The notes beneath the pieces were generated by a model. It had not been told where the DNA came from and did not search any database. It was given only the letters and a program-made list of their open reading frames with translations. Positions 12,832-21,065 of a stretch of 22,786 bases of DNA are shown here, one piece after another. The stretch is from a bacterium. GTDB taxonomy: Bacteria; Sysuimicrobiota; Sysuimicrobiia; Sysuimicrobiales; Humicultoraceae. The DNA is taken from positions 1 through 22,786 of the forward strand of contig JBGQGY010000054.1 of NCBI GenBank assembly GCA_041497675.1. Direction: 5' to 3'. Each line of letters starts with the position of its first letter. Position 1 is the first letter of the stretch. The translations under genes and the position numbers were made by a program.

Positions 12832-14592
12832 TTATTTCTTGAGCAGCAACACATAATAATCTGTATCGCCGACGCGCCGCCAGCCCATCGAGGAGAAATC
12901 CACAACCGGTTCGTGTCCTTCATCCCGAAAGTTCGGCTGATTGATGACCGCGTCTGCGCCGGCTTCCGCGAACCGCTCGAGAATCGCCCGCCTGACCCCT
13001 TCCTCCGCCAGCCAGAAATCCCGCTTGGCCCAGGCGGGCACCTCGCCAACGATCCGGACCCGGGCCAACCACGCCCAGTAGGCGGCCCGGATGCCTGGAC
13101 CGATGACGGCCACGCGGTGCCCGGGTTCGATCCCCATCTGCCGCAGACCGCTGGCCACCTGCCAGGGGATATCCGCCGCAGGCGCGCGGTTGGGTGCCAC
13201 CAGCTCCCGCGCAATGTCGTAGGCGTGACGGCCGGACATGCCTGCGATGATGGCCCCGTGAAATAGGATGAGCACGGCCACCAGCAGGCCCGCCGTCCTG
13301 CGCACGTCCCGCGCCGGGGCGATCCGCACACTGGTAACCAGCCCCAGCCACAGCAGCACCATGAAGGGCGCAATGTAGCGCGACTCGAGATGGAGGCTGC
13401 CAAACGCCGCAAGCGCGGCCACACCGGGGACCCAAATGGCGGCGTGCTGCCGCAGGGCCGGCAGCGAAAGCCACCGTCGCCACGCGAGGAACGCGGCGGT
13501 ACCCAGAAAGACCACGGCGCCCGGCATCCAGTGGTGGAGCGCGTCGTCTGCGCCGTACAACCGGAGGCTCCAGCGTGCCGTGATCACGTGTCCCCTGAGA
13601 CTGAATCTCGGTTGGAGCCCCGCGTACCAATACGCCGGGTCAAACCACGGGGGGTAGGTCGCTTCCACGGGCCCCGCAAACTCATAGGCCGCCGGAGCCT
13701 TGGAGATCTGACGCGTCGGGTGAGTGGGTGTTCCAAATACTCGAAACTCGCCTTGATAGTGGAGGATCGGCAACCGATCAACATGCCAGAGGTAGTTGAG
13801 CCAGGCGCTGTCTCCCAGCGTGACGCGCCCCCTCGTCTGATAGAACCCGAAGACGAGGGTCGCCGCGATGCACATGAAGACGACAAGTGTGACGGCGGCA
13901 CGGCGCGCGGCCGCCTGCATTGACAGTCCGGCGGGAAGCGGCACGACGGACAGGAGGAGAAACACGAAGCCGATCGGAAACATCGGCGCCTTTGCCAGAT
14001 ACCCCACTCCGAGGGCGAGCCCCAGCACGGCGAACGCCCCCCACCGCTCCGGATGCATACGGCAGCGCAGCAGCCATCCGGCAGCCAGAAAGACGCACGT
14101 CGCCACCGCCAGGTCAGGCGCCACGAAGGCCATGCCCATCAAGTTGAGCGACGACCAAATGAAGATGACATACCCTGTTGTCACAATCACCCATTCGGGG
14201 ACCTGCTCGCGTCCATTGTCGACGGGGCGGGATGCGACTGTCTTCCGATAGCGCACCAGCTGACGCAGAAAAAAATCGAACGATGCAAGCGCAGCAAGGA
14301 AAATGACGAAGTTCACGGCGTGCACGACCGGGAACGCCCATCGCGCATCCGGCCGCGCGAGAGCCATCGCCAATGCGAGCAACCAGGGATAGAGCGGGCT
14401 CCAGTGGCCGTTGATCGCGCGCGGCCAGTCGCCTCGGAGGACGGCCCGGCTCATGTCGAGATAGGAAATGCCGTCGTGGGTCATCTCGTATCGACCGGCC
14501 CAGGCGGCAATCAGGGCGAGCGTGACGGCGAGCGCGATACCGGCGCGCCGGATGCGGTCTGTGCGACCGCGTTCGGCCTCCGGGGTCAACAC
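12832..14592 (-). CDS. Polytopic membrane protein, probable GT-C fold glycosyltransferase (ArnT/PMT-like)
   Basis: First TM helix followed by a loop with HDGISYLD..WSPLYP, then APD and GYLAK motifs, many hydrophobic segments, and RY near the C-terminal TMs. The start is probably GTG 14592 or TTG 14589 (GAGG upstream) rather than 14652. Confidence 0.65.
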   Translation of the reverse strand: MLTPEAERGRTDRIRRAGIALAVTLALIAAWAGRYEMTHDGISYLDMSRAVLRGDWPRAINGHWSPLYPWLLALAMALARPDARWAFPVVHAVNFVIFLAALASFDFFLRQLVRYRKTVASRPVDNGREQVPEWVIVTTGYVIFIWSSLNLMGMAFVAPDLAVATCVFLAAGWLLRCRMHPERWGAFAVLGLALGVGYLAKAPMFPIGFVFLLLSVVPLPAGLSMQAAARRAAVTLVVFMCIAATLVFGFYQTRGRVTLGDSAWLNYLWHVDRLPILHYQGEFRVFGTPTHPTRQISKAPAAYEFAGPVEATYPPWFDPAYWYAGLQPRFSLRGHVITARWSLRLYGADDALHHWMPGAVVFLGTAAFLAWRRWLSLPALRQHAAIWVPGVAALAAFGSLHLESRYIAPFMVLLWLGLVTSVRIAPARDVRRTAGLLVAVLILFHGAIIAGMSGRHAYDIARELVAPNRAPAADIPWQVASGLRQMGIEPGHRVAVIGPGIRAAYWAWLARVRIVGEVPAWAKRDFWLAEEGVRRAILERFAEAGADAVINQPNFRDEGHEPVVDFSSMGWRRVGDTDYYVLLLKK

Positions 14593-14642
14593 GCGCCTCG
14601 TGGGGGGGGCGAGGGGAACGCGGACGAACACATGCCGACGAA

Positions 14643-14651
14643 ATGGTACCA
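14643..14651 (-). promoter_or_regulatory. Putative extended -10 element for the GT-C-like gene
   Basis: The minus strand reads TG-G-TACCAT, matching TGnTAnnnT. Confidence 0.35.
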
Positions 14652-14678
14652 CACCCCGCCGGGAGAGGAAACTTTGTA

Positions 14679-16341: not shown

Positions 16342-16385
16342 AACGAGACCGGGGGCGGGATCGTGCTCCGCCCCCGATTCGTTTA
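16342..16385. terminator. Probable bidirectional intrinsic terminator hairpin between convergent genes
   Basis: CGGGGGCGG (16350-16358) pairs with CCGCCCCCG (16368-16376); flanks AACGA/TCGTT extend the stem. Followed by ATTCGTTT on the plus strand. Confidence 0.65.
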
Positions 16386-16403: not shown

Positions 16404-17867
16404 TCACGGCGCCACCCGCAGCGGGACGAAAGTTTCAGCATAGCCTGTTGTCACAAACTGCACGGACCGACCACCAACGACGCCCGCGACCGTGTACCGA
16501 CCTCTCATTTGCAGGAAGATATCCCGCCCGGACACCGGTGGATCCTGCGGCGTGGCGACGATATCCTCGGGGACGAATTCCACCACCAGTCGATCGCCGG
16601 CGTCGTTGGCCGCGCGGTATCGCAGGCGCGCCGGAACACGCAGCCGGATCCCGTTCCCGCGGGGGCCGGACGTCCAGCCGCTCGGCTCCGGCGCGCTCCC
16701 CCGGAGCAGCCCCATGACCCCCGAACGATCCCCTGTGGTCCCAAACAGCGTCACCAGCATCTCCTGACCCTTCACCGAGGGATGGCGGACCAGTCCCGCG
16801 AGTAGCGCATAGCTCGTCGTGCTGGCGGTCCCCCACTCCCACGTCACCGCCTGCCAGACTCCCCAGTTGTGATCGTGATAGCCGGTCCCGTCGATCCGCA
16901 GTGTCTTGGAACCAATAGTGACCGTCCCCGTGACCTCGGCCCGCAGCGCCGGGACGACGTATCCCGACCGAAGACTCGTCGACTGCTGCTCAACCGGCGG
17001 CAAGTACCATCCTTGCTCGGGTGTGACCAGGAGATCTGCGGACAGCCGCTCGTTGGGTCCGCCCATCTGGCGTAGGTTAATCCGGTAGGTGCCATCGCGC
17101 AATTCGGCCCGATGCGGTCCGGCCGCGATGATCGCCCGCTCGAAGGGCAGGGCCGATGCGGGGTGCGTGTCGGCCAACCGCAGGAGCCGGCCGCCGGGGC
17201 GATGCACGGTGACGGCCACACGCACGCGCCGTTCGCGGTCTGCGATAAACGACACGTACCCGTGTGTGCCGTCGCTGGTTGCAAAGTTGAAGTACCACCA
17301 CTCGGCCCAGGTGCGCCCCTCGGGACCGGCCGGTGGAGTGTGAAATCGATCGATCGCGGCCAACCGCTCCTGCGACGACGGGGTGATCCACGCACGGTCG
17401 CGATCGTCATCCTGCCAGCGCGCATCGGCGACTTCGAGAAGGCTACGTGTCGCGGCGGCCGCCGATGGAATCGCTCCGCTGGCCCTGGCCGCCGTCACCC
17501 GATCGCGCACGCGAACGTAGATGAGCTTGTCGATCATCTCGGGCGATGCCGCCGCGATCGTGTCCGCGTACCGTGGCCCCATCAGCACCTGCCGCGTCAA
17601 GAACCGTGCGTTTGGCATGACCAGAAACATGGCCGTCGCCGCGCCCGTCTTGAGGACTTCGGCATCGATCCCGGCCGGCACAAGCACCAGGTCGCCGCCG
17701 GCGACGACATCGCGGTCCCTCGCCTGCAAGAGCAACGCGTCTCCAACGGCCAGCAGCGCGATCATGACGGCGACACCGAGACCGTAGCCGAGCAGCAAAA
17801 TCAGCGTGCGCCGCGGCCGTACCAGCAGCATTCGAAGGGCCAACAGGCCGGCGGCCGAGATCTTCAT
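16404..17867 (-). CDS. Fusion protein: N-terminal half of a MacB/LolE-type permease plus an AttH/CrtC-like (lipocalin-like) domain
   Basis: The N-terminus LALRMLLVRPRRTLILLLGYGLGVAVMIALLAVGD...DLVLVP...AASP is a typical MacB amphipathic helix, TM1 and periplasmic start. The C-terminal part has EWWYFN and GTGYHDHNWG..WEW motifs and no FtsX TM helices. ATGA overlap with the ATPase stop. Confidence 0.75.
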   Translation of the reverse strand: MKISAAGLLALRMLLVRPRRTLILLLGYGLGVAVMIALLAVGDALLLQARDRDVVAGGDLVLVPAGIDAEVLKTGAATAMFLVMPNARFLTRQVLMGPRYADTIAAASPEMIDKLIYVRVRDRVTAARASGAIPSAAAATRSLLEVADARWQDDDRDRAWITPSSQERLAAIDRFHTPPAGPEGRTWAEWWYFNFATSDGTHGYVSFIADRERRVRVAVTVHRPGGRLLRLADTHPASALPFERAIIAAGPHRAELRDGTYRINLRQMGGPNERLSADLLVTPEQGWYLPPVEQQSTSLRSGYVVPALRAEVTGTVTIGSKTLRIDGTGYHDHNWGVWQAVTWEWGTASTTSYALLAGLVRHPSVKGQEMLVTLFGTTGDRSGVMGLLRGSAPEPSGWTSGPRGNGIRLRVPARLRYRAANDAGDRLVVEFVPEDIVATPQDPPVSGRDIFLQMRGRYTVAGVVGGRSVQFVTTGYAETFVPLRVAP

Positions 17868-18535
17868 GCGAGGCGGCCGTCCCGCAGCACAAGCGTCCGG
17901 TCGGCCAGCGAGGCGATCTCGGCATTGTGTGTCACCACCACGACGGCCACACCCTCGTGGTGAACCCGCTGCAAGAGCCGCCCGATCTCTCTGCCCGTTT
18001 CCTGATCGAGCTCTCCGGTCGGTTCGTCGGCCAACAGCAGCGACGGACGGTTGGCCAGCGCGCGCGCAACGGCGACACGCTGCATCTCTCCACCGCTCAG
18101 CTGTCCGGGCACATGACGGCGGCGGTGCGCCAACCCCACATACTCGAGCAGCTCGGCGACCCGGCGCGTGCGCTCGGCCGGCGGCACCCCCGCCTCGAGC
18201 ATTGGGAGGACGATGTTCTCTTCAGCCGTGAGCATCGGAAGCAAGAAAAAGCGCTGGAAGATGAACCCGAGGCGACGAAGCCGCGTGGCCGTCAACGCCG
18301 CGTCGCTCAGCCGGTGCGTCACGTCGCCGAACAACCACACTTCACCGGACGTCGGCAGGTCCACCCCACCCATGAGGTGCAGCAACGTCGACTTGCCGCT
18401 CCCCGACGGACCGACGATCGCGACGAACTCTCCGGCTTGTACCTGCATGGTCACGCCCCGCAGCGCCGCAACGGGAGCGCCGTCAAACTGATAGGTGCGT
18501 GCCCCATCGCGCAGTTCGACGACCGGGGCGGTCAT
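17864..18535 (-). CDS. ABC transporter ATP-binding protein (LolD/MacB/SalX family)
   Basis: Walker A GPSGSGKST, GFIFQ, signature LSGGEMQRVAVARAL, Walker B LLLADEPTG and VTH switch. Confidence 0.95.
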   Translation of the reverse strand: MTAPVVELRDGARTYQFDGAPVAALRGVTMQVQAGEFVAIVGPSGSGKSTLLHLMGGVDLPTSGEVWLFGDVTHRLSDAALTATRLRRLGFIFQRFFLLPMLTAEENIVLPMLEAGVPPAERTRRVAELLEYVGLAHRRRHVPGQLSGGEMQRVAVARALANRPSLLLADEPTGELDQETGREIGRLLQRVHHEGVAVVVVTHNAEIASLADRTLVLRDGRLA

Positions 18536-18539
18536 GGGG

Positions 18540-19715
18540 CTACTGCACCTCCTGGTGGAGGGTCGCCGCGATGTTCAGCCGTCCTACGATCCACGCGGGA
18601 TGGGCGGCACCAAGCGTACCGGTGATCATCAACAAGAGCACGGTCCTGACAACGGCCTGCGGGCTCATGACAAAAAAGTGCAGGTCTTGTGGAATCCCCG
18701 GCGTCGCGCGCAAGATCGCATCCAACGGGCGGCTGATGATCCCCCCGACCGCCAGCGCGAGCGGGGTGCTGACCGCGGACAGGACTGCGCCTTCGAGCAA
18801 GACGAGCAGCACCGCGCGCGGCCTCGAAAGGCCCACGGCGCGCAATGCCGCAAGTTCGCCGAGGCGCTCGCCGACCGACAGCGTCAGCACGGCGCCGATC
18901 AACAGAAACGCCACCAGCAGGCTGATACCGGTGAGAATGGTTGAGAAGTGCTCGAAGTATCGCAGTTGCTGCCGCACCTGGTGCAGCAGACCGGCGATCG
19001 AAAACGCATCAAGGGAAGGCCATTCAGCTGCGATCCAGCGCACGACGGACTCGGGATCGACCCCGGGCCGCGTCTTCACGACGACGAACGACGCGGGGTC
19101 GCCGTCCAGTCCAAGCAGATGCTGGAGATCCGCGAGCGGCATCGCGACCGTCCGCTGCGCCCGTAGATCGAAGGCGAAGTCGCCGATCGCCAGGACCCGC
19201 GCGGTGCTGGTCCGTCCGGGCCGACCGGTTTGCGGGTCGATCCGCGACGACAACTGTACGGCGTCGCCCGTCGACACGCCGATGCGTCGCGCCAGCTCTC
19301 TGTTGATGACCAACCCGTCGACGGTGTCGCGTCCAGATTCCAGTCGGATGATTCCCCGGACCTCCGGACGCAGCCCCAGCGTGACCGCCGCCAACCGGCC
19401 GGCCGGGCCTTCCACATACAGGTTCGTCGCCAGGACCGGACTCGCCAACACCACGCCAGGATGTGCCGCGACGCGACGCGCCACGGTCTGCGCATCGGGC
19501 ATCAACGCGTCCGTCGAGAGCGGCAGCGTCCCCCGGAGAACCACACGCACGTCATAGCCGAGCCGTCCCAACGCGCTCCCGAAACTGCGCTCCAGACCAC
19601 CGCTCAGCATGGACATATCGAACAGCAGCGCGCCGGCGACCGTGACCCCGGCAATCAAAAGTACCGTACGGGACGCCGCCCGTCGAAGGTTCTTCCCGGC
19701 CAGGAACCAGATCAC
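18540..19715 (-). CDS. MacB/LolE/FtsX-type ABC permease, full length (391 aa)
   Basis: LAGKNLRR..SRT plus TM1, a periplasmic domain (LVINRELARRIGVSTGD), ERLGELAALRAVG and three C-terminal TMs. GTG 19715 overlaps the upstream TAG by 1 nt. Confidence 0.9.
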   Translation of the reverse strand: MIWFLAGKNLRRAASRTVLLIAGVTVAGALLFDMSMLSGGLERSFGSALGRLGYDVRVVLRGTLPLSTDALMPDAQTVARRVAAHPGVVLASPVLATNLYVEGPAGRLAAVTLGLRPEVRGIIRLESGRDTVDGLVINRELARRIGVSTGDAVQLSSRIDPQTGRPGRTSTARVLAIGDFAFDLRAQRTVAMPLADLQHLLGLDGDPASFVVVKTRPGVDPESVVRWIAAEWPSLDAFSIAGLLHQVRQQLRYFEHFSTILTGISLLVAFLLIGAVLTLSVGERLGELAALRAVGLSRPRAVLLVLLEGAVLSAVSTPLALAVGGIISRPLDAILRATPGIPQDLHFFVMSPQAVVRTVLLLMITGTLGAAHPAWIVGRLNIAATLHQEVQ

Positions 19716-20572
19716 TACCGGCTGACCTGTTCCAGCGGCGACCGGCGTAGGATGCGCACGGCCGCCGCGGCGCCCGCTCCAAGTCCGAGCGCCATCGCCA
19801 GGCTCGCCGCAAACACAACCGTCCGCGGCTCGAGGACGGCGAACCGTAGTGTTGTCCCAAACAGCGGCTGGTAGTAGCCGTTGATGCCCCACACCATGAC
19901 GGCGCCCATGAGCACGCCCGCCAGGCACCCGGCAGCAGCAACCACGGTGGTCACAAGCATGATCGTCGTGCCGATCGTGCGGCGGCTCACGCCCATGAGT
20001 CGCAGCGCGCCGATCTCGCGCCGCATCTCCGTCAATCGAAGCACCATCAGGGTAACCAGGAAGATCCCACCGGCGAACACCGTGATCAGCCCGATTGCAC
20101 GATGGAATCGCGAAATCACGACAAATGTTTGCGACGTCCGCTCGACGAGCTCTCCCGCCGTATAGGCGTCAAACCCGAGGGCGAGCCCTCGAAGATCGTC
20201 GCGCGTCTGGGCTGCGACACTCGGGTCTGCGCCTTCGCGCAGGCGCACGACTACGCGATCAACCACATCGTGCCGTCCGAGTACATCTTCCAACACCGGG
20301 AGGTGCATCCGCACTTGCGCGTCCCCGCGGGCGACGTCCGCCGGGTGCTCCGGACCGGTCCAGATCGCCGCGACCCGAACCCGCCGCGCCCTCGCCATTG
20401 ATGGATCCGCACTCACTTCGATGACATCGCCGATCTGCAGCCCGAGCCGCCGGGCCGTTCTGGCTGAGACGGCGATGTTGTCGGGGGGGATTTCCGCTGC
20501 CACACCGATGGGGAGGGCAAGTGCCAGAACCACCGCACCCAGAGCAAGCCTTTCGCGGATGGTTCGGCTCAC
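19715..20572 (-). CDS. C-terminal half of a MacB/FtsX-type ABC permease with its own signal peptide (285 aa)
   Basis: GTG 20572 gives MSRTIRERLALGAVVLALALPIGVAA-E (signal-peptide-like), then IAVSARTARRLGLQIGD, EMRREIGALRLMG and three TMs. The longer ORF-track start overlaps the DinB gene. Confidence 0.8.
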   Translation of the reverse strand: MSRTIRERLALGAVVLALALPIGVAAEIPPDNIAVSARTARRLGLQIGDVIEVSADPSMARARRVRVAAIWTGPEHPADVARGDAQVRMHLPVLEDVLGRHDVVDRVVVRLREGADPSVAAQTRDDLRGLALGFDAYTAGELVERTSQTFVVISRFHRAIGLITVFAGGIFLVTLMVLRLTEMRREIGALRLMGVSRRTIGTTIMLVTTVVAAAGCLAGVLMGAVMVWGINGYYQPLFGTTLRFAVLEPRTVVFAASLAMALGLGAGAAAAVRILRRSPLEQVSR

Positions 20573-20609: not shown

Positions 20610-21065
20610 CTACGTCTGTACCAGCTTCGCCAGGATCTGCAGCTGCCCGAGGTGGTAGGCCAGGTGCCGCGTCGCGTGGAGCAGGGATTGTCCTCTCGCT
20701 TCCTTGACCGTCCCCTCCGGCCGCCGCACCTCCACGTCGGTGAGCAGGTCTGCCGCGCGTAGCCCGGCCAGCACCTGGCGCGTCGTTGCCGCGGCACGAT
20801 CCAGCGCGGCCAGCACCGTTGCCTTCTCCACGCGATCACTCCCAAACTCGGCCTCGCGGTTGCGGTTCGCGGGGATTCCGCCGACCACCTCGCCGACCCA
20901 GTAGCGCTCCGATCCGGCCATATGCCGCAGCAGCATGCCCACGGTATTCTGCAGGCCGGGCACGCGCCGGTTCACGGCGTCATCACTGAGTGGTGTAGCG
21001 ATGGCGGTGGCCGCGTTGTGCAGCTCGTCGAGAACCTTCGCGTACGGGGCGATCAGCGCATCCAT
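20610..21065 (-). CDS. DinB/YfiT superfamily protein
   Basis: NTVGMLLRHMAGSERYW and HATRHLAYHLGQL give the metal-binding His pattern. GAGGA lies upstream of the ATG. Confidence 0.88.
   Translation of the reverse strand: MDALIAPYAKVLDELHNAATAIATPLSDDAVNRRVPGLQNTVGMLLRHMAGSERYWVGEVVGGIPANRNREAEFGSDRVEKATVLAALDRAAATTRQVLAGLRAADLLTDVEVRRPEGTVKEARGQSLLHATRHLAYHLGQLQILAKLVQT

Follow-up and report, generated by a model that had tools for sequence, protein, structure and literature searches.

ABC (ATP-binding cassette) systems of type VII pair with periplasmic partners and have been proposed to extract lipids (PMC12646458; like the other papers named here, cited from excerpts). Among the described systems, the closest to the one reported below are AttEFGH of Agrobacterium tumefaciens and, in Mycobacterium tuberculosis, Rv0986-Rv0988: both comprise an ATPase, AttH and a pair of permease units, the latter being either separate (AttF, AttG) or fused (Rv0987) (PMC3982062). 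The genomic linkage of the AttH-like protein NE1406 to a LolD-like ABC system was noted in 2009, and the AttH-like fold consists of two orthogonally packed lipocalin-like beta barrels (PMC2954199). A 2018 review of MacB lists layouts with a fused or separate ATPase, homo- and heterodimers, and two units fused in one chain (BceB, YbbP); a unit split between the first and second transmembrane (TM) helices, TM1 and TM2, is not named among the layouts in the excerpted part of that review (PMC5985334), and no description of a split type VII permease was found in the open-access papers and preprints searched. Here we describe such a split in a four-gene operon, A-B-C-D, encoded in a stretch of 22,786 nucleotides (hereafter, the window) from a bacterium of the Humicultoraceae (Sysuimicrobiota; contig JBGQGY010000054.1 of assembly GCA_041497675.1), which is best seen as a variant of the Att-type type VII ABC systems. 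This architecture was established from the gene content, the complementarity of the two permease pieces, their conservation, purifying selection and the fold of an extra domain. What is new is the split layout for the type VII class, the AttH/CrtC-fold identity of the extra domain in D and the predicted location of the break within the Sabre subdomain.

All four open reading frames (ORFs) proposed in the initial annotation are found on the minus strand and are tightly packed (the stop of A and the start of B have 1 nucleotide in common, B and C are separated by 4 nucleotides, and C and D overlap by 4), and their positions bear out the permuted order of the permease halves. By hydropathy, D contains one TM segment, B four and C none, and A has an N-terminal hydrophobic stretch followed by three, so that a 4-TM unit with a periplasmic domain between TM1 and TM2 is present as one chain in B and, with A and D, as a two-chain composite only. 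B matches the Pfam families MacB_PCD (profile positions 1-205, E = 6.1e-9) and FtsX, both above the cut-offs, and comparison of its family profile with the PDB retrieves LolF (2e-16), LolC (2.2e-15) and MacB (5.3e-14), the matches to LolF, LolC and LolE ranging from 2e-16 to 8.5e-14. C is an ABC_tran protein (1.3e-33), the best NCBIfam models of which are LolD, the MacB nucleotide-binding domain and FtsE (E from 1e-64 to 1e-62), all scoring under their equivalog cut-offs; the LolD match (1.2e-64), at 217.8 bits, falls short of the cut-off of 307.75, and C is therefore not a LolD equivalog. The same holds for the permeases, with scores of 35.3 bits for B and 21 bits for A against the cut-off of 362.45 of TIGR02212 (lolCE), so that neither is a LolC/LolE equivalog; the score of NF007826 (MacB) is likewise far under its cut-off. 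The FtsX-type C-terminal TM bundle (PF02687) is recognised in both A (residues 159-279, 2e-12) and B (7.5e-9), in each case over the 25.5-bit cut-off.

Profile comparisons between the families of the operon proteins (alignments of 53 D, 52 A and 50 B sequences) show that A and D correspond to complementary parts of B. The A family aligns at positions 32-279 with positions 134-382 of the B family (hhalign probability 99.6%, E = 1.3e-24), and this relationship is also detected by BLASTP (A 31-272 against B 133-376, E = 2e-13); for D, positions 5-136 match B 1-119 (probability 74%, E = 2.8e-5). The two pieces do not overlap on B and leave about 14 of its residues uncovered. The Pfam matches partition in the same manner: D covers MacB_PCD positions 1-124 (residues 21-160, E = 9.4e-4; under the gathering score, with nothing else above noise) and A covers positions 120-203 of 207 (residues 30-122, E = 8.6e-4; also under the gathering score) followed by FtsX, the full complement of both families being found in B. 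MacB_PCD is matched by 13 of 15 members of the D family, with the best E value of 1.1e-5; the D family profile further matches TM1 of Escherichia coli MacB in the PDB (5nik_J 257-295, E = 0.0058), and residues 2-159 of D weakly match the front of an ordinary 403-residue permease encoded elsewhere in the same genome (E = 5.6e-4). Given these complementary matches to B, with neither a large overlap nor a large gap between the aligned halves, the description of a split permease in the initial annotation is correct.

The site of the break can be approximated by mapping the pieces onto known structures. The AlphaFold2 (AF2) model of A (predicted local distance difference test score, pLDDT, 87.8; TM segments at 160-178, 204-222 and 252-275 by hydropathy) aligns from residue 30-31 onward to known type VII permease structures, namely, MacB of A. 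actinomycetemcomitans (AaMacB; 396-642, Z 9.1), YtrF (136-434, Z 9.1), LolE (144-413, Z 8.6) and LolC (140-397, Z 7.2). In AaMacB, two beta-alpha-beta motifs (306-346 and 466-503) make up the Porter subdomain and flank a contiguous Sabre subdomain (347-465), and Porter, which needs both motifs, is reported in all type VII members (PMC5985334). Because A aligns from AaMacB 396, the models place the break inside Sabre, about 50 residues past its start, and not at a domain border. D would then run from the cytoplasmic N-terminus through TM1 and the first Porter beta-alpha-beta motif into Sabre, and A would take over within Sabre and continue through the second Porter motif to TM2-TM4, so that Porter and Sabre would both be built from two chains. 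The low definition of D residues 50-160 (pLDDT 47-75) and the lack of a strand in A 99-116, an expected Porter strand, in the respective single-chain AF2 models fit domains that need a partner.

The signal-peptide-like start that the initial annotation noticed on the back half is indeed present, and it is kept in all 52 aligned relatives of A, each of which has there a stretch of 10 or more residues that lacks charges and is hydrophobic at 8 of 10 positions or more; 50 of the 52 also have a small-x-small motif within the last 15 residues before the conserved part. The start codons of these relatives were chosen by a heuristic that failed in 5 of 60 loci, with 2 more sequences being too short. 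The median length of the N-terminal segment, 25.5 residues, points to a signal peptide rather than a TM helix. Cleavage of this leader, which we infer from the sequence, would place the N-terminus of A in the periplasm, matching the topology of MacB.

Table 1. Coordinates of the operon, its genes and their parts in the window.
Feature	Position	Strand	Description and basis
Four-gene operon, order A-B-C-D	16404-20572	minus	ORFs and order kept across loci
Gene A	19715-20572	minus	ORF, GTG start, 285 residues; back half of split permease
A residues 1-26, signal-peptide-like N-terminus	20495-20572	minus	basic start, hydrophobic core 10-28, V-A-A before conserved domain
Gene B	18540-19715	minus	ORF, GTG start, 391 residues; intact 4-TM MacB/LolC-type permease
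Gene C	17864-18535	minus	ORF, 223 residues; ABC ATPase of LolD/MacB/FtsE type
Gene D	16404-17867	minus	ORF, 487 residues; front permease piece and predicted AttH/CrtC-fold domain
D residues 1-140, front permease piece	17448-17867	minus	MacB_PCD 1-124, profile comparison to B, single TM 23-41
D residues ~176-487, predicted AttH/CrtC-fold double beta-barrel	16407-17342	minus	AF2 pLDDT mostly >90; structure comparison

The split system is not peculiar to the window genome and represents a large family spread over several phyla. Among 8000 candidates scored, 2598 are relatives of D at E<=1e-3; 116 of the best 120 are 443-512 residues long (lengths outside this range include 292, 411 and 576), and the best come from Armatimonadota, Gemmatimonadota and Eisenbacteria bins. 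In public records, A is annotated as a generic ABC permease and D, where named, as a hypothetical protein, indicating that the family has gone unrecognised. In a collection of species genomes, 555 stretches encode a D relative, and 80 of these loci were kept for comparison: by record title, 74 are from Gemmatimonadota, and the remaining six are single loci labelled Armatimonadota, Eiseniibacteriota, Acidimicrobiales, a Kuenenia bin, a Bacillota bin and an unlabelled bacterium; bin labels might be wrong. All 60 loci with more than 2750 nucleotides upstream of D have the order A-B-C-D on one strand, as do 4 of 4 further loci from the phylum of the window genome; the other 20 loci are truncated by contig edges and show the partial order to be expected. 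The survey of synteny suggested in the initial annotation thus shows the split and the gene order kept wherever they could be traced. The junctions lie within 30 nucleotides of exact abutment in 56 of 60 loci for A-B, 47 for B-C and 55 for C-D, with starts extrapolated from BLAST; the operon is otherwise tight, and insertions of about 1.6 kb and 2.5 kb between B and C are seen in two loci (L020 and L060). Within the phylum of the window genome, the distribution of D is patchy: D is detected at E<=1e-20 in 36 of 94 sampled genomes, including an unpublished one (G039), and in 23 of 54 high-quality genomes, with a strong match in 13 of 30 close relatives.

No unsplit counterpart of either piece was seen in the searches. 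The best 120 relatives of A are all 216-332 residues long, without a full-length form among them; proteins longer than 500 residues gave no close fused form but three weak matches (749-852 residues, 25-33% identity, double-permease content), a negative that is itself weak evidence; and among the 150 best representatives of the C-terminal domain of D, none has an unsplit TM1-PCD-barrel-PCD-3TM form (PCD denoting the periplasmic domain). In one locus of Gemmatimonadales (L023:3101-5224), A and B are read as a single ORF of 707 residues, with a 15-residue linker, directly repeated, between them; an error of assembly or a natural fusion, which the topology would allow, could explain this. In a tree built by quick search from the C-terminal halves, with 27 of the 52 A rows and 28 of the 50 B rows included, A and B are reciprocally monophyletic (Shimodaira-Hasegawa-like approximate likelihood-ratio test support, SH-aLRT, of 96 and 99) with similar inner branching, which implies that the duplication and, by implication, the split predate the spread of the operon. 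The ratio of nonsynonymous to synonymous substitution rates (dN/dS) between the window and one genome of the same genus is 0.124 for D 1-170, 0.110 for B 117-391, 0.145 for C and 0.356 for D 171-487.

That the last gene switches to another domain after the front permease piece, as the initial annotation stated, is upheld; we can add the identity of this domain. The AF2 model of the C-terminal domain of D matches structures of the AttH fold with Foldseek E values of about 1e-11, and VIA-align gives Z scores of 21.6-25.1 with root-mean-square deviations (rmsd) of 3.3-3.9 Å over 273-298 residues. The best match is Fsa2 (Z 25.1, rmsd 3.3 Å, 292 residues), followed by CghA (Z 24.2), AttH NE1406 (2ich, Z 24.0), kievitone hydratase (Z 23.5), Phm7 (Z 23.2) and 25-phosphosteroid lyase (Z 21.9), at a wide distance from the next unrelated entry (Z 9.0), so that the modelled domain has the two-barrel AttH/CrtC fold. 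At the sequence level, it is under every Pfam cut-off; in particular, Pfam CrtC (PF07143) matches neither D at E<=1 nor any of 15 family members at E<=0.1, and no canonical CrtC was found in the window's own genome. A search of D 165-487 against 1.84 billion representatives yielded 367 proteins at E<=1e-3, mostly of the D architecture, and the distant relatives match Pfam CrtC, Svf1_C, DA_N, DUF7065 or DUF2804. Two motifs do not vary within the D family, WxEWxYF and YHDHNWG (YHDHNWG in 132 of the 150 best representatives; Y.D.WG in all 53 rows of the family alignment), and further invariant polar residues are E189, H331, D332, H333, Q453 and E478. These motifs are shared with bona fide proteins matching Pfam CrtC, as indicated by a protein of 799 residues (P0183; Pfam CrtC 1.4e-13) with two tandem CrtC-like domains, each carrying FEWWYF and GYHDHNWG.

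Several candidate variants of this domain were examined. Some representatives of 311-362 residues resembled stand-alone barrel copies; the six that were read begin in the middle of the D family sequence and are probably truncated gene calls. A protein of 704 residues (P0232) that resembled a fusion of the ATPase with D has an out-of-frame arginine-rich stretch between the ATPase-like start and the barrel-like end, and was rejected as an artefact in which frame errors were probably spanned by one gene call. Nor do the open frames of 745-804 residues met around D in the phylum search represent ATPase-D fusions, C and D being in different frames in all four of the loci retrieved.

The explanation that we consider the best, and hold with reasonable although not high confidence, is that the operon encodes an Att-type type VII ABC machine in which a dimer of the ATPase C drives a heterodimeric membrane part made of the intact B and a two-piece A/D pseudo-subunit. 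From D would come TM1 with the cytoplasmic N-terminus ahead of it, together with the first Porter motif and one or more strands at the start of Sabre; A, which a Sec-type signal peptide would export so that its N-terminus is periplasmic, would complete Sabre and add the second Porter motif and TM2-TM4, and the two would rebuild one 4-TM unit with a break inside Sabre. Past the break, D would continue through a linker of about 35 residues into the AttH/CrtC-fold double barrel, which would in this way be tethered to a moving periplasmic domain. By analogy with LolCDE-LolA and YbbAP-TesA, ATP binding and hydrolysis would move the stalk helices and the periplasmic domains, and this movement might lift a hydrophobic compound, probably isoprenoid-like or another lipid, out of the cytoplasmic membrane's outer leaflet. 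The compound would be presented to the tethered barrel and then bound or chemically altered in a hydratase- or lyase-like manner (Y330 and D332 are invariant); both the class of substrate and the chemistry are suggested by the analogy with the same two systems. A more specific version, which we put forward tentatively, is that the cut in Sabre wires an AttH-fold enzyme to the moving domain such that ATP hydrolysis both extracts an isoprenoid or lipid and gates its conversion by hydration or lyase chemistry.

Alternatively, the split might be a product of artefact or decay, that is, a strain-specific rearrangement, frameshift or misassembly of an intact permease; the window assembly is fragmented (272 contigs), and a few related records contain frame errors or odd fusions (P0232, L023, L063, L067). 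However, the same order recurs in all 60 testable loci of several phyla and in the 4 further loci, the pieces are separated by two other genes and permuted, the signal-peptide-like start is conserved, the front piece evolves at a dN/dS of 0.12, and the searches among the best 120 relatives of A and among proteins longer than 500 residues revealed no full-length close relative. As far as sequence can tell, decay and misassembly are refuted; we regard this explanation as having next to no probability, and the argument of the initial annotation for a functional split is borne out. Another alternative, that D is an accessory single-pass partner with a merely TM1-like anchor, and that A is a truncated 3-TM subunit next to B or forms with B the whole membrane part, appears improbable to us, if by a smaller measure. 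The likeness of D to permeases is weak, the periplasmic partners of type VII systems are normally separate (PMC12646458), the AttH of AttEFGH is a protein of its own (PMC3982062), and the contact between A and D is surmised. Yet, the match of D extends beyond TM1, over the first 124 positions of MacB_PCD, and ends where the match of A starts; TM1 and the first Porter motif are absent from A in all of its best 120 relatives, in a class where both Porter motifs are reportedly needed (PMC5985334); and the selection on D 1-170 is as strong as that on the ATPase. It is also conceivable, albeit doubtful, that the assembly is as we propose and the barrel is not an enzyme, being instead a LolA-like acceptor, a lid or a sensor that binds a lipid or lipoprotein and might pass the cargo on or gate the ATPase. 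NE1406/AttH has been described as a binder of the lipocalin type, for which a part in lipid transport was proposed (PMC2954199), LolCDE passes its cargo to a barrel-like chaperone (PMC12646458), and the catalytic set of CrtC is only partly recognisable in D. A barrel anchored by TM1, however, would be unable to shuttle cargo, several of the structural neighbours are enzymes, and the invariance of YHDHNWG, WxEWxYF and other polar residues across phyla is a pattern that fits an active site better than a greasy pocket.

Several observations weigh against the two-chain subunit with a tethered enzyme that we prefer. The likeness of the front piece of D to a permease is the weakest link of the argument, being apparent at the profile level only: BLASTP of D against B gives nothing significant, the MacB_PCD score of D is under the gathering cut-off, and the hhalign probability is merely 74%. 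The contact between A and D, and their physical reassembly into one subunit, are presumed, a cut inside a compact subdomain is structurally demanding, and the hydrophobic N-terminus of A, with the starts of its relatives set heuristically, could be an uncleaved anchor instead of a signal peptide. The function assigned to the barrel is drawn from analogy within a fold that includes binders, hydratases, lyases and pericyclases, and we know of no proven activity of AttH itself. By eye, the Y-x-D pair (Y330 and D332, invariant) is the sole part of the CrtC catalytic set seen in D, with S-G-Y in place of H-x-W about 27 residues upstream; the residues essential in Rubrivivax CrtC are H239, W241, Y266 and D268 (PMC4717167). 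Nearly all sequences come from metagenome bins. Finally, the genomic context gives no functional pointer that holds from phylum to phylum, in that no neighbour common to several phyla was found among 108 flanking ORFs of 20 loci (the ORFs remaining, after a size limit, of 147 drawn from 27 loci).

In the window, the operon is surrounded by genes for a DinB_2 protein, RmuC and a family-5 solute-binding protein (SBP_bac_5), and no MacA- or TolC-like gene adjoins it. The DinB_2 (mycothiol-S-transferase-like) gene is located just upstream, at 20610-21065 on the minus strand; in the closest named relative, a DinB_2-type gene (L003:961-1422) is near the operon as well, with two other genes intervening. 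Where the solute-binding-protein gene and D converge, a GC-rich hairpin of 10 pairs (16350-16376) lies between their ends and could serve as a terminator for both. Farther away, a 606-residue ORF with many hydrophobic segments (12832-14652, minus strand) has no Pfam match at E<=1e-4. In 11 of the 20 loci scanned, all from Gemmatimonadota, genes for Nramp, a DtxR/FeoA-type repressor or a ZIP transporter adjoin the operon upstream of A (L006, L010, L017, L018, L022, L032, L033, L043, L046, L061 and L065), and a gene for 3-hydroxyacyl-CoA dehydrogenase is often close by in these loci; the metal-homeostasis neighbours may reflect mere shared synteny among kin.

A widespread, selected split in the periplasmic domain would imply that a 4-TM unit can form from two chains, and it marks the Sabre loop as a site where a partner domain can be attached. 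Because the partner is covalently bound, the split system would offer a natural setting in which to study how ATP hydrolysis in the cytoplasm reaches a periplasmic partner, and possibly an entry to the AttH-linked ABC systems. If the proposed coupling of extraction to lipid modification is true, the operon would encode an ATP-coupled periplasmic lipid-modifying machine and would give the Att-type ABC systems, long left unexplained, their first functional handle.

Compared with the known systems, the window operon combines familiar parts in a distinct arrangement. It shares the TM1-Porter/Sabre-TM2-4 plan with MacB of MacAB-TolC (A aligns on AaMacB 396-642 and TM1 of D on MacB 257-295) and differs from it in having the ATPase in a separate gene, no adjacent MacA/TolC-like gene and a score below the NCBIfam MacB cut-off. 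LolCDE-LolA likewise has two different 4-TM permeases and one ATPase gene, and LolCDE extracts acylated cargo into the barrel-like acceptor LolA (PMC12646458); in the window, in contrast, the putative acceptor is covalently tethered and of another fold, one permease is split, and the scores are far from the lolCE and LolD cut-offs. YbbAP-TesA resembles the proposed system in that a periplasmic enzyme sits on the type VII periplasmic domains and hydrophobic compounds are proposed to be extracted (PMC12646458), but YbbP joins two units in one chain with 10 TM helices and TesA, an SGNH hydrolase, is a protein of its own, whereas the window shows fission and a covalently attached partner with a predicted AttH fold. 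The double-barrel fold predicted for D is that of CrtC hydratases, kievitone hydratase, 25-phosphosteroid lyase and the Fsa2/Phm7/CghA pericyclases; no fusion of such an AttH-fold enzyme to a transporter piece is known in the literature covered, and in this D differs from all of them. The likeness is greatest to AttEFGH/Rv0986-0988, where an operon also includes a LolD-like ATPase, two units of the FtsX/MacB type and an AttH-fold protein; this comparison draws the list of parts from the excerpted descriptions, and the sole protein compared, by fold, is the AttH homologue NE1406. In those systems, the permease units are whole and AttH is exported as a protein of its own, whereas in the window one unit is cut in its periplasmic domain, the front piece is fused to the AttH-like domain, the back piece has acquired a segment like a signal peptide at its start, and the genes stand in permuted order.

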